A stretch of 64,000 nt of DNA from an uncultured Methanosarcinales archaeon (GTDB taxonomy: Archaea > Nanobdellota > Nanobdellia > Woesearchaeales > UBA9642): positions 7,232 through 71,231 of the forward strand of contig CAZQDS010000001.1 in NCBI GenBank assembly GCA_964591655.1, in the 5' to 3' direction. Positions 46,497 through 51,015 of this stretch are shown piece by piece. How positions within the stretch are numbered: the stretch's first letter is position 1; each line of letters opens with the position of its first letter. A program made the position numbers and the translations under genes. The notes below the pieces were generated by a model. The model did no database searches, was not told the origin of the DNA, and saw nothing but the letters and a program-made list of their open reading frames with translations.

Positions 46497-46901
46497 ATGA
46501 CATATATGAGCCCAGTCGATTTTAGATTTTTCAACAAATTTTATCAGCATCTTGAAACGCGTAGTTTGAAAGGAGATGCATTTAGAGACACTCTCGGCTA
46601 TATGAAAATTCTAGTCGATAAAATGAATAAGCTCTATGATGTGAATTTAGGATATGATTATAAAAGCGAATCTCATACACTCAAGAGGTTTTTTTGTGAT
46701 GCCCTGATTTGCAAAGAAAGCGAATATAAAAAATTTGTCAGCAATCTATCTGAAGTTGTAGATTTTATGGATAAAAATGTGCGTGCCCCTATTAGGAGTT
46801 CATTGAAGGAGTCTCTGGAAAAAGATTTGGGCACAATAATAAGACATATCAAGATTAAGACATTAGCGGACCTTAGGTCTCCAGTGAAAGATAATTCTTG
46901 A
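46497..46901 (+). CDS. hypothetical protein (134 aa)
   Basis: ORF only. Confidence 0.3.
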   Translation: MTYMSPVDFRFFNKFYQHLETRSLKGDAFRDTLGYMKILVDKMNKLYDVNLGYDYKSESHTLKRFFCDALICKESEYKKFVSNLSEVVDFMDKNVRAPIRSSLKESLEKDLGTIIRHIKIKTLADLRSPVKDNS

Positions 46902-46942: not shown

Positions 46943-47371
46943 ATGAATAGCAAATTTCCTGGCGATGAAAATTATTCTTTTATTGCATACTCTTCTTCAT
47001 TGAAAAATTTTTTGGACATATGGGATGGCACGTATGTGCATTCAGATAGCGACAAGAAAAAAATTCTTGGTGATGCCAAGAGATTCATAACCGCAATAAA
47101 AGGCGTGGCGCAGGTCGGCGATATAGGATTTGGCGATTTAGCTGGAAGAACCTATAGGATCATGATTGCTGAAAAATTGAACCTTCAATCTACAGAACAG
47201 TTCGACTTGTTCATAAATGACTTGTCAAATATCGTCGATGCATTATATGAAGGTGAATCATTGCCAAAAAGAAGCGATGTGTATTTCGGCTTGCAAAAAA
47301 TCGAGCGATACCTATCTTCAGAAGCGGCGAAAAAACAATTTAAGTATATCCATTCCAATGATGACGATTAA
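46943..47371 (+). CDS. hypothetical protein (142 aa)
   Basis: ORF only. Confidence 0.3.
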   Translation: MNSKFPGDENYSFIAYSSSLKNFLDIWDGTYVHSDSDKKKILGDAKRFITAIKGVAQVGDIGFGDLAGRTYRIMIAEKLNLQSTEQFDLFINDLSNIVDALYEGESLPKRSDVYFGLQKIERYLSSEAAKKQFKYIHSNDDD

Positions 47372-47416: not shown

Positions 47417-48196
47417 ATGTATGGGTATTGGTATTCGGTCAAGGAGAACTTTTCTTTCTCAAGGATAGAATTATCACAATTGTTCTGGACATCGCTGGCT
47501 TTCGGGTTCGCGTTGTCTTTCAGGAAATGGGGTACCGGAGACAGTGTCGATGTCCCTGTAGGAATAGTCAATCTCCTATTTGCGACAGTCGTAGTGCTGT
47601 TGTGTATGTATGTGCATGTTTCATTGCAGAAACTCGTGGCCATAAAATTAGGCTATAAGGCAACGTACTCATATTGGCTTAACGGTGCATTGTTCGCCGT
47701 CTTCTTGGCGTTCTTATCATTCGGTTATATAGCATTCATACTTCCTGGCGCCGTCATGGTCGAACACATTCCTCGTCTGAGGGTCGGGAAATTCAGGTAT
47801 GGTACGAATCTTAAGGATATCGCAAGAGTGGCGTTGGCAGGTCCGGTGTCCCATATACTGCTTGTCTTGATAATCGGCCCGTTGTTTTTCGTTTCTGGAA
47901 GGAACGACGTATTGTTATCTATGATAATAGTCAATCTGTTGCTTGCGATATATTCCATTCTGCCGATACCAAAAATAGACATGCCTAGCAAGATGGATTC
48001 GGGATCTGATGGATTGGGGTTGTTCTATTTTTCAAGGACCTTATATGTCCTCGTCTTAGTTACTGTACTGGCGTTTTCCGCCCTCGTATTCTCGTCAGCG
48101 AATTCTGTAGGCATGGGGTGGTTATTCATAATAGCATTCGTAATAGGATGCATATTTGCTCTTTTCTATAGTGTTTCACTCGAGCAAAAAAATTAG
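47417..48196 (+). CDS. polytopic membrane protein
   Basis: 7-8 hydrophobic helices; no catalytic motif recognised. Confidence 0.4.
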   Translation: MYGYWYSVKENFSFSRIELSQLFWTSLAFGFALSFRKWGTGDSVDVPVGIVNLLFATVVVLLCMYVHVSLQKLVAIKLGYKATYSYWLNGALFAVFLAFLSFGYIAFILPGAVMVEHIPRLRVGKFRYGTNLKDIARVALAGPVSHILLVLIIGPLFFVSGRNDVLLSMIIVNLLLAIYSILPIPKIDMPSKMDSGSDGLGLFYFSRTLYVLVLVTVLAFSALVFSSANSVGMGWLFIIAFVIGCIFALFYSVSLEQKN

Positions 48197-48325
48197 CTCC
48201 GTCGAAAAAAACTCAAAATGTTTCGACAATGTTTTACCGTCTACAAATTTAATTTCTCCGACTGAAAAATAATAAACTTTATAAACTAGTTACTCCAGGA
48301 TACACTATAACTCGTATGAGTTGGG

Positions 48326-48577
48326 GTGACTAATATGGAAACAGTTGCAAAAGTTGGAGTAAAGAAACAAAAGGGATACCTGTATTTCGTAGATAAACAG
48401 GGAGACATCTCAGCTGCTACAATGGCTCGAGGCGGCGGAAAAGCAAAGAAGGGCTCAAAGAAGGTAGCAAAAGTTGGAGTAAAGAAAGAGAAGGGCTACT
48501 TATATTTCGTAGATAAGAAGGGAAACGTCTCTAGGGCAAAGATGGCTCGAGGCGGAAGAAAGAAAAAGAGAAAATAA
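48326..48577 (+). CDS. small highly basic protein made of two tandem ~38-aa repeats
   Basis: 'VAKVGVKKQKGYLYFVDKQGDISAATMARGGGKAKKG' followed by 'VAKVGVKKEKGYLYFVDKKGNVSRAKMARGGRKKKRK'. The repeat is also obvious at the DNA level. Confidence 0.5.
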   Translation: MTNMETVAKVGVKKQKGYLYFVDKQGDISAATMARGGGKAKKGSKKVAKVGVKKEKGYLYFVDKKGNVSRAKMARGGRKKKRK

Positions 48578-48655
48578 TAAAAATTTGTTAAACAAATTTT
48601 TAGAACAAGAAATTGTAACACAATTTCTTTGTAAATCTTTTTTAGTATTTTTTTC

Positions 48656-48680
48656 TAAAGAGGCAAAACCTCTTTTTTTA
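48656..48680. terminator. hairpin plus T-tract terminator between convergent genes
   Basis: aagagg-caaaa-cctctt followed by T7 (aaagaggcaaaacctcttttttt). Confidence 0.5.
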
Positions 48681-48699
48681 TTCTATTTTTTTGATTGCA

Positions 48700-48948
48700 C
48701 TACTTGCGCTTACATTTCTTCCAGTAGATGATTCCTACCAGAACAGATACTATTAGCGATGCCGTAGTATATATTATTCTAAAAAATTCCCATCTGGAAT
48801 AATCGCAACTAAACAGGTCATCGCTCACTTTGATGCAAGACATCTTTACGCTCATGCTAGAATTCACCACTATCAACAGTGCGCCCGTCAAAAAAACAAA
48901 AATCAACAATCCTAGGCCTATTGCTCTAATAACCGGTTTCATAATCAA
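48700..48948 (-). CDS. small membrane protein (82 aa)
   Basis: Two hydrophobic helices; basic C-terminus. Confidence 0.35.
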   Translation of the reverse strand: MIMKPVIRAIGLGLLIFVFLTGALLIVVNSSMSVKMSCIKVSDDLFSCDYSRWEFFRIIYTTASLIVSVLVGIIYWKKCKRK

Positions 48949-49512: not shown

Positions 49513-50076
49513 ATGGGTGAGACCATGATAGGTTGGATAATTACCGGCGTAGCAGTATTCATTGTGTTTATACTGATAGTGATGTATAATAGGTTTGTTG
49601 TTCTAAGGAACAGGATAGATAATGCTTGGGCCCAGATCGATGTTCAGCTCAAGAGAAGGTATGATCTGATACCTAATCTTGTTGAGACTGTCAAGGGATA
49701 TGCGAAGCATGAGAAAAAGGTCTTCACAGAAGTGACAAAGGCAAGGACTGCCATGATGGAAGCGAAGACTATCCCCGAAAAAGCAAAAGCGAACAATATG
49801 CTGACTGAGACTTTGAAAAGCTTATTTGCTGTTGCAGAGAACTATCCTAAACTAGAGGCATCAGAGAATTTCAGGATGCTGCAGGAAGAGCTTTCAGGAA
49901 CAGAGAGCAAGATAGCATATGCAAGGCAGGCATACAACGATTCTGTGCTTTCATACAATAATGGCACACAGCAGTTCCCAGGAAGCATCGTTGCAGGGAT
50001 GTTCAATTTCAAGCAGAGAGATTTCTTCAAGACAGAAGGTGCAGAGAAAGAGAATGTTGCTGTGAAGTTCGAGTAA
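49513..50076 (+). CDS. lemA: LemA-family protein
   Basis: N-terminal TM plus '[23 protein letters not shown]...[25 protein letters not shown]' (LemA signature). Confidence 0.75.
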
Positions 50077-50106
50077 TTTTTTTAGTTTTTTTATCTTATC
50101 TAATCG

Positions 50107-51015
50107 GTGATATTGATGGCTAACGCATTCGACGAGGTAGCAAAGAATAAGTTCAAGAGTTATCTCTTGATGTTCTTATTTGCCGCGATATTGATAGGAT
50201 TGGCATATGTAATAGGGTTGTGGTATGGAAACGGTAGTCCTGCTATCATAATAGGTTTCATGTTCATCGCATTCATAATATCTATATGCATGGCGCTCGC
50301 AAGTTATTTCTGGGGCGATAAGGCAGCATTGCAGATAAGCAACGCGAGGCCGGCAGACAGGCGACAGCATGCACATTACATAAATAGTGTGGAAGGTTTG
50401 GCTATTGCTGCACAAGTTCCTGTCCCTAAAATCTATGTCATCCCGGACCAATCGATCAATGCTTTCGCTACAGGCCGCGATCCTGAGCATGCAAGCATTG
50501 CCGTAACTGAAGGCGCATTAAAAAAGTTGAATCGCGTAGAGCTTGAAGGAGTCATCGCACACGAGATGGCACATGTGAAGAATTATGATATGCGATTGAT
50601 GACTGTCACAGTGATCCTTGTCGGCCTGATAGCACTATTGAGCGATCTATTCATAAGAAGCATGTGGTTCGGTGGTGGGAAGAGCGATAACAACGGGAAG
50701 GGGAACGCAGTGATACTCCTCGTAGGGATTGCTCTTGCGATACTCGCACCCCTATTTGCAGAGTTGATCAAGCTGGCGATAAGCAGGAAGAGGGAATATG
50801 CTGCAGATGCAACGGGCGCAATACTCGGTAGACATCCTCAAGGTCTGGCCGATGCATTGAAAAAGATAAAGAAGGATTCCGAAGAGACAAAAGTCGCCAC
50901 GAAAGCGACAGCGCACCTATATTTCAGCAACCCATTCAAGAAAGGAGCGTTCTCCAGTCTATTCTCGACACATCCTCCGATAGAAGAAAGGATAAGAAGA
51001 TTAGAAGCAATGTAG
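50107..51015 (+). CDS. htpX: HtpX-like M48 zinc metalloprotease
   Basis: 'HEMAHVKNYD' (HExxH), downstream 'EYAAD'; 4 TM helices. Confidence 0.75.
   Translation: MILMANAFDEVAKNKFKSYLLMFLFAAILIGLAYVIGLWYGNGSPAIIIGFMFIAFIISICMALASYFWGDKAALQISNARPADRRQHAHYINSVEGLAIAAQVPVPKIYVIPDQSINAFATGRDPEHASIAVTEGALKKLNRVELEGVIAHEMAHVKNYDMRLMTVTVILVGLIALLSDLFIRSMWFGGGKSDNNGKGNAVILLVGIALAILAPLFAELIKLAISRKREYAADATGAILGRHPQGLADALKKIKKDSEETKVATKATAHLYFSNPFKKGAFSSLFSTHPPIEERIRRLEAM

Follow-up and report, generated by a model that had tools for sequence, protein, structure and literature searches.

The small crenarchaeal chromatin proteins Sul7d (Sso7d/Sac7d) and Cren7 bind DNA without sequence specificity, through a beta-sheet face and basic residues. 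Their mass is 7-9 kDa, they are rich in lysine, and beta-sheet makes up most or all of their structure (Sul7d has a C-terminal helix besides its sheet); each is encoded by a stand-alone gene. Here we describe a gene whose product resembles them in size, lysine content, predicted beta-sheet structure and stand-alone arrangement. It lies at 48335-48577 of a 64-kb stretch of DNA (hereafter the window; contig CAZQDS010000001.1) deposited as an uncultured Methanosarcinales archaeon, and it belongs to a conserved family of tandem-repeat proteins. We infer that the window protein may be a non-specific DNA binder of the same kind. The differences are nevertheless considerable. Whereas Sul7d and Cren7 form a single five-stranded SH3-like barrel, the window protein is predicted to consist of two tandem three-stranded units joined by a flexible basic linker; neither Sul7d nor Cren7 was among the PDB hits listed by Foldseek, and neither shows profile similarity to the window protein. 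Moreover, Sul7d and Cren7 occur in Crenarchaeota, whereas the window family is found in DPANN archaea, many bacterial phyla and viruses.

The gene and its flanking signals comprise the following features:

48278 to 48285, + strand: TATA-box-like element TTTATAAA, preceded by an A-rich flank and lying about 50 nt 5' of the start codon (read from the sequence).
48323 to 48329, + strand: Shine-Dalgarno sequence GGGGTGA, 5 nt before the ATG.
48335 to 48577, + strand: coding sequence of an 80-aa protein (METVAKVG...RKKKRK) with stop codon TAA at 48575-48577 (open reading frame and homolog starts).
48344 to 48463, + strand: unit 1 (40 aa), with beta1, basic loop KVGVKK, beta2 GYLYFVD, turn KQGD, beta3 ISAAT, MARGG and the K/G-rich linker GKAKKGSKK (Tandem Repeats Finder, AlphaFold2 and consensus).
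48464 to 48574, + strand: unit 2 (37 aa), with the same three strands, MARGG and the basic tail RKKKRK (same sources).
48578 to 48602 and 48607 to 48629, + strand: two perfect A/U-rich hairpins just 3' of the stop codon (RNA folding).
48657 to 48682, + strand: G+C-containing, terminator-like hairpin AAAGAGG-CAAAA-CCTCTTT, followed by T7 (RNA folding).

For the + strand open reading frame (ORF) that stops at 48577, the ORF caller's start is GTG 48326, which would give 83 amino acids. However, this GTG falls within the Shine-Dalgarno sequence, and close homologs open with METVAKVG, their methionine aligned with ATG 48335, while most other members open with MAEKVAKVG. We therefore take ATG 48335 as the true start. 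The product has a mass of 8.75 kDa, a pI of 10.6, 26 lysine and arginine residues against 5 aspartate and glutamate residues (net charge about +21) and no cysteines. The 83-residue basic protein of a preliminary description of this DNA is thus basic, as stated, but 80 residues long. An identical protein sequence is present in the protein collection, labelled as a Woesearchaeota 'hypothetical protein', and the gene is single-copy within the window.

Upstream of the orthologs in the closest relatives (loci L001, L002, L026 and L047) a block, AAACTTTATAAAC, is kept that contains TTTATAAA, a putative promoter element. GGAGG or GGGGTGA stands at the same distance from the ATG in every archaeal ortholog locus. 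On the other side of the gene, the downstream region has a fold z-score of -3.45, and the last of its three hairpins, the one followed by T7, sits between convergent genes, a minus-strand ORF ending at 48700 in the ORF map. With these expression-type signals on both sides, and with the purifying selection described below, the preliminary description was right to propose a separate small gene that has its own TATA-like upstream region and a hairpin/T7 terminator.

Comparison of the window copy with L001, 99% identical in protein, showed 18 synonymous differences over about 23 synonymous sites in the first 34 codons, which is saturation, and no non-synonymous difference over about 79 sites. For other pairs, the ratio of non-synonymous to synonymous rates (dN/dS) was about 0.015-0.08. 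These substitution patterns indicate that the protein is real and under very strong purifying selection. We conclude, with little room for doubt, that 48335-48577 is a genuine gene and a member of a conserved family.

Tandem Repeats Finder reported a period of 120 nt over 48347-48569 (1.9 copies, 80% matches, score 304), and the 30-aa cores of units 1 and 2 are 80% identical in protein and 81% identical in DNA. This repeat is far above chance expectation, and the two units had been rightly recognised before at both levels; their supposed recent origin, in contrast, did not hold. The two-unit motif pattern was matched by 347 of 413 retrieved protein sequences, most of them 75-110 aa long. Over 82 loci, units are about equally similar within and between proteins: mean identity was 0.74 for unit 1 against unit 2 of the same protein and, between different proteins, 0.71 for unit 1 against unit 1, 0.70 for unit 2 against unit 2 and 0.69 for unit 1 against unit 2. 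Among 280 proteins, core position +4 is F in 63% and Y in 37% of first units, compared with F in 95% and Y in 5% of second units; position +5 is L in 40% and 4%, and position +15 is K in 48% and 86%, respectively. Since these unit-specific preferences and the two-unit architecture are shared family-wide, the duplication is older than the family's dispersal. Constraint on the two units is almost equal.

What could still suggest that the small ORF is spurious, confined to one lineage or recently duplicated is the 80% DNA identity of the units together with their codon usage. The window copy shares 17 of 23 codons between its units, against about 9.3 expected, the largest excess among the 82 loci, where the family-wide excess is mild (952 shared codons observed, about 853 expected). 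L001, however, shows no excess (11 shared codons, 11.2 expected), dN/dS is close to zero, the preferences of each unit are family-wide, and the 347 two-unit sequences come from three kinds of genome, archaeal, bacterial and viral. We regard the chance of such an origin as negligible. The codon excess is best read as the trace of occasional short gene-conversion tracts, or in the window possibly of chance, and not of a recent duplication. The excess is extreme at another locus (L061:5998-6234, from a metagenome-assembled genome of an Endomicrobium sp.), whose units have 26 of 27 codons in common and a DNA identity of 97%, which suggests lineage-specific gene conversion or re-duplication there.

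AlphaFold2 was run twice, on the window protein with an alignment of 45 sequences and, independently, on a Nitrospirota homolog with 48 sequences. The window model (predicted local distance difference test, pLDDT, 87.5; predicted template-modelling score, pTM, 0.72) has strands E2-5, E15-19 and E25-29, then E41-45, E55-59 and E65-69; the Nitrospirota model (pLDDT 87.6, pTM 0.70) has E3-6, E16-20 and E26-30, then E44-47, E57-61 and E67-71. Confidence is highest in the cores (pLDDT 91-95; 93-94 for the strands of unit 1) and falls to about 73 in the linker and to 64-70 in the tail. Both models reproducibly predict that the roughly 30 residues of each unit form a three-stranded antiparallel mini-sheet. 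The order of elements in the family is beta1; a nine-residue basic loop, K-V-G-V-K-K/R-E-K-G; beta2, G-Y-L-Y-F-V/I-D; a tight turn, K-x-G-D/N; beta3, V-S-R-A-K-M; and a near-invariant A-R-G-G (M-A-R-G-G), with a K/G-rich linker of varying length between the units and a K/R tail at the C-terminus. In the set of sequences selected by the motif, L, Y, D, K and glycine residues are near-invariant, as are M and R of M-A-R-G-G. Invariant residues lie on both faces of beta2, and we suppose that one of these faces serves for packing and the other for function. Both models are all-beta and built around the hairpin K-G-Y-L-Y-F-V-D-K-x-G, so the beta-hairpin-like core proposed earlier is supported by prediction. 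Foldseek found no PDB or viral structural neighbour for them.

The preliminary description had suggested a small SH3-like or KOW-like protein binding nucleic acid or chromatin. The fold in this suggestion is not supported by our data: KOW (PF00467) was never listed, whether for the query at E<=10 or for 45 alignment members at E<=1, and at the same thresholds the Sul7d (PF02294), Cren7 (PF11520) and SH3 profiles did not match, nor did the cold-shock domain (PF00313) in the query or the 45 members. The models have two sets of three strands instead of a five-stranded barrel, and no SH3-like or KOW-like fold is among the Foldseek hits listed. The functional part of the suggestion survives as the best guess, as discussed below.

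The statement that the protein could not be placed in a named family was upheld. Pfam-A searches with the whole protein (E<=10), with a single unit as had been proposed, and with the 45 alignment members (E<=1) returned only noise below the threshold, for example DotY, Ribophorin_I, HepII_C, GldM_2nd and sCache_2, and, among the 45 members, Choline_bind_2 and DUF5050. PDB chain sequences, ribosome chains included, gave 0 matches at E<=10, PADLOC gave none, and PHROGs gave only a weak match to phrog_9154, a family of unknown function. We looked for a ribosomal protein or another characterised family and found none, with no ribosomal-protein match in the Pfam, NCBIfam or PDB sequence searches. 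The sole NCBIfam matches, BaiB, FadD4 and CaiC (E 4e-4 to 0.1), arise from the local motif GYLYFVD(R)KKD, which is the only likeness to the A8 hairpin of adenylate-forming enzymes (acyl-CoA ligases). They cover 23-28 residues and score 11-19 bits against cut-offs of 650-850, so we rejected an adenylate-forming identity and read the motif as a convergent beta-hairpin. The literature, searched by Pfam accession, by motif and for nucleoid proteins of DPANN, Omnitrophota and Woesearchaeota, yielded no account of the family. In the libraries and sources searched, these proteins have no curated family or name.

The family is large. A word-indexed search retrieved 2,210 clusters at 90% identity, and an exhaustive hidden Markov model search against 1.84 billion representatives yielded 1,199 clusters (50% identity) at E<=1e-3, with 458 still retained at E<=1e-10. 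A scan of GTDB with one genome per species confirmed at least 579 loci, the best 80 of which were surveyed for taxonomy. The exact protein and its close relatives are labelled Woesearchaeota (L002, from Woesearchaeota UBA12459, is 97% identical to the window protein). The best 80 also include Omnitrophota, Elusimicrobiota/Endomicrobia, Myxococcota and 'delta proteobacterium' contigs of 1.1 and 2.8 Mb, Planctomycetota, Nitrospirota, Auribacterota, Spirochaetales, Clostridia and Babeliaceae. Copies labelled as bacterial are 56-75% identical to the query and sit in loci with a G+C content of 23% to 74%. Relatives are present on 11 IMG/VR viral contigs, and tblastn found none in cultured-phage genomes or plasmids. 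Some viral proteins have a single unit of 43-50 aa (L089:1852-1989, L090:6004-6141, L091:5998-6129 and L092:5995-6147) and may resemble the form that preceded the duplication. All labelled sources are metagenome-assembled or uncultured genomes, and the names we found for the protein all read 'hypothetical protein', apart from one JGI label, '20S proteasome' (P0037), which we take to be an annotation error.

Labels in public assemblies need some care here. L047, labelled 'Alphaproteobacteria' (G+C 0.35), has its gene order in common with Woesearchaeota loci, and the 'uncultured Methanosarcinales' loci L005, L029, L036, L041, L048 and L053 have neighbours in common with them, so that these contigs are probably mis-binned or mislabelled. 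For the bacterial loci tested, we ruled out that the hits are mis-binned archaeal contigs. A class A PBP, TolQ/ExbB and a sigma-54 activator are encoded near the gene in L011, L062 and L071, a BamD-like TPR protein is likewise found among bacterial neighbours, and L030 and L043 are on bacterial contigs of 1.1-2.8 Mb. Given these bacterial-type neighbours and long contigs, the bacterial provenance is solid.

Such a patchy distribution across domains, with copies on viral contigs, might also be that of a polycation whose targets are other polyanions or membranes, for instance a binder of polyphosphate or acidic lipid or an antimicrobial or toxin-like peptide, possibly carried on mobile elements. 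The very high lysine and arginine content and some membrane-anchored fusions would suit such a role. Against it, the protein has no secretion signal and no PADLOC match, no immunity or antitoxin gene is conserved beside it, no copy was found on plasmids or in cultured-phage genomes, and purifying selection acts on the folded core and not on charge alone, which argues for a specific structured interaction. We consider a role of this sort very improbable.

Evidence bearing on function comes from sequences attached to the unit pair. Of 350 two-unit homologs, 30, mostly from high-G+C bacteria, carry long low-complexity tails of K, R, A, P and T (for example TARRKPARRK and AKKAVKK), a composition typical of DNA-binding tails of the H1, HupB and Hc1 type. 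The K/A/P-rich tails of histone H1-like and HupB-type proteins are also alike in composition to the family's linker, its tail and extensions of the (T/A)ARRKPARRK type. The near-invariant A-R-G-G recalls the R-G-R hooks of AT-hook (HMGA-like) proteins, although the canonical core GRP is absent in the family. Proteins of the H1, HupB and AT-hook types differ from the window family in that its conserved part is a folded beta core and not only low-complexity sequence. The unit pair is also fused to an Mrr_cat restriction endonuclease (P0197), to a HIT hydrolase (P0143 and P0254; aprataxin, similarly, combines HIT with a finger that binds DNA) and to several zinc ribbons, which GAF and Prok-RING accompany in some cases (P0142, P0156, P0170, P0183 and P0223).

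No operon partner is conserved across the 82 loci, only clade-specific synteny. The gene lies immediately upstream of uvrA in 10 of 11 loci labelled Omnitrophota or Planctomycetota (L012, L021, L025, L033, L039, L046, L055, L067, L071, L076 and L079), where an aspartate-dehydrogenase-like gene usually precedes it. In one Woesearchaeota clade (L013, L014, L024, L027, L029, L031, L034, L057 and related loci), it is found within five genes on either side of oapC, oapB, a putative oapA-type GTPase gene, an mre11-like gene and herA; because it adjoins origin-associated oap genes, it is probably near the replication origin in this clade. In Elusimicrobia loci the gene comes after an HTH_17 gene, and viral two-unit copies are located among genes for a helicase and for RDF-like, ParB-methylase, C5-methylase and deaminase proteins.

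The charge, the H1-like tails, the Mrr, HIT and zinc-ribbon fusions and the DNA-metabolism neighbours lead us to favor a DNA-architectural role. The reading we prefer, at a rough probability of 45%, is that the protein binds nucleic acid without sequence specificity and is probably an architectural or nucleoid-associated binder of double-stranded DNA. The small size and strongly basic charge fit the profile of nucleoid-associated and chromatin proteins, which is a functional class and not a homology family. Such a protein would be abundant and would bind DNA rather than RNA, with its two beta units serving as paired contact modules that present conserved Tyr, Arg and Lys residues; electrostatic affinity could come from the K/R linker and tail, as it does from H1-like tails. 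The strong Shine-Dalgarno sequence of all archaeal loci and the conserved TATA block would be no more than indirect signs of such abundance. Since identity between domains is 56-75%, the ligand should be the same everywhere, which fits B-DNA better than a lineage-specific partner. Transfer between domains is, moreover, a known habit of chromatin proteins, as with HU in Thermoplasma and histones in Bdellovibrio.

Several observations weigh against this preference. Profile, PDB and Foldseek searches linked the protein to no known DNA- or RNA-binding fold, either by sequence or by structure, and K/R-rich tails are also borne by RNA-binding proteins. The unit pair is fused to membrane anchors and OmpA as well (P0164, P0201, P0210 and P0250). 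The aromatic hairpin resembles propeller-blade and sugar- or choline-binding repeats, as seen in a faint match to PF27482 and in the sub-threshold Choline_bind_2 and DUF5050 matches. In the absence of a family-wide partner, the neighbourhood signals may reflect mere synteny within clades. Finally, bacteria have HU, and the archaeal hosts have packaging proteins of their own: Woesearchaeota already encode histones and Alba (PMC6136690). A role in bulk packaging is therefore not required in either group.

The aromatic-rich beta2, K-G-Y-L-Y-F-V, with its basic flanks raises the question of RNA as the ligand. In this respect beta2 resembles KGFGFI, the RNP1 motif of CspA. With the RNP motifs of the CspA cold-shock domain the family shares a strand of the form K-G-aromatic-x-aromatic-hydrophobic, a tight turn and a second strand, in a small and basic protein. 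The window protein could thus act as an RNA chaperone or in association with the ribosome or with translation; exposed aromatics on its beta strands would stack on single-stranded RNA as in cold-shock RNP motifs while the basic linker and tail bind the backbone. The extreme charge agrees with this, as does the high conservation across domains, which would suit a ligand like the rRNA core, and the HIT-domain fusions could relate to nucleotides or RNA caps. However, the cold-shock domain is a five-stranded OB barrel without a tandem repeat, and the predicted strand count and order of the window protein do not fit it. Among the 45 members there was no match to cold-shock, OB, KH, Sm or ribosomal-protein profiles, and no PDB chain matched. 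Neighbour clustering placed 0 of the 82 loci in a ribosomal-protein or translation operon, and both the Mrr nuclease fusion and the neighbouring uvrA, mre11, herA and methylase genes speak for DNA. An RNA-binding function seems unlikely to us.

Antiparallel beta units of 30-40 residues around an aromatic hairpin, in tandem duplicate within 80-90 aa, are also known from WW domains, from the RSL and BambL lectins and from PF27482 (Beta-prop_YycP). Two-repeat RSL and BambL trimerise into six-bladed propellers, and by this precedent the window protein could be a self-assembling beta-repeat scaffold or lectin-like protein whose blade-like units oligomerise to bind a glycan, a cell-envelope polymer or a protein. 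PF27482 appears as a faint precomputed match in a minority of members only (YycP is uncharacterised in the literature searched), there are sub-threshold matches to other beta-repeat families, proteins with four to six or more units exist (P0121 and P0123), and the membrane-anchor and OmpA fusions would suit this reading. However, the family lacks a Trp-Trp/Pro signature, is strongly basic, has a flexible linker and gave no structural match. Each unit has three short strands, and the variable, K/G-rich linker of lower confidence provides no fourth blade strand; the protein lacks a signal peptide and, at +21, has a net charge that would be unusual in a lectin, and all Pfam matches are far under threshold. 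A scaffold or lectin would also leave the H1-like tails and the nuclease and zinc-ribbon fusions unexplained, and we judge it improbable. The multi-blade propeller architecture of PF27482 itself was rejected, as 80 aa, two three-stranded units and a flexible, variable K/G linker do not fit it. Among long proteins, P0121 (886 aa), P0123 (354 aa) and P0213 (1139 aa) have 4-8 matches to the unit profile; in P0213 these stand in a different, G/A-rich and tail-fibre-like repeat context and may represent only an analogous hairpin.

The DNA-architectural reading, which we thus retain, can be carried further. It is conceivable, although we hold this doubtful, that the proteins are undescribed chromatin or nucleoid proteins with a new DNA-binding fold of tandem three-stranded beta units, in which the KVGVKK loops and A-R-G-G hooks take part, and that they spread horizontally among DPANN archaea, bacterial phyla and viruses, remaining near-invariant because they read generic B-DNA.

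The genes around the window copy are as follows:

46497 to 46901 and 46943 to 47371, + strand: adjacent ORFs of 134 and 142 aa without a Pfam match.
47417 to 48196, + strand: 259-aa polytopic membrane protein without a Pfam match, directly upstream of the gene.
49513 to 51015, + strand: LemA-family gene, then a gene for an M48 (HtpX-like) peptidase (Pfam).

In 11 loci of the window's clade the 259-aa membrane protein is encoded shortly upstream of the gene, in most of them right next to it, and the LemA-HtpX pair is also found downstream in the related loci L001, L026 and L047. These neighbours are uninformative on function. The 134- and 142-aa ORFs show weak mutual similarity (pairwise E 0.003) and may be distant paralogs. 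The window as a whole has a G+C content of 39.9%; across it no tRNA was found, and no Rfam family reached its gathering threshold.

Small basic nucleic-acid and chromatin proteins are a known kind, whereas this family, its tandem three-stranded unit and its spread across domains appear undescribed and uncurated. With about 1,200 clusters at 50% identity, near-zero dN/dS and confident models that have no PDB neighbour, the family merits a curated name even without a function. It occurs commonly in lineages that have been seen almost exclusively in metagenomic data, namely Woesearchaeota, Omnitrophota, Elusimicrobiota, uncultured Myxococcota, Nitrospirota and Planctomycetota. If the proposed function is correct, these organisms would have a new family of small chromatin-type proteins with a fold of its own, and the short list of nucleoid proteins that Archaea, Bacteria and viruses exchange would grow by one.

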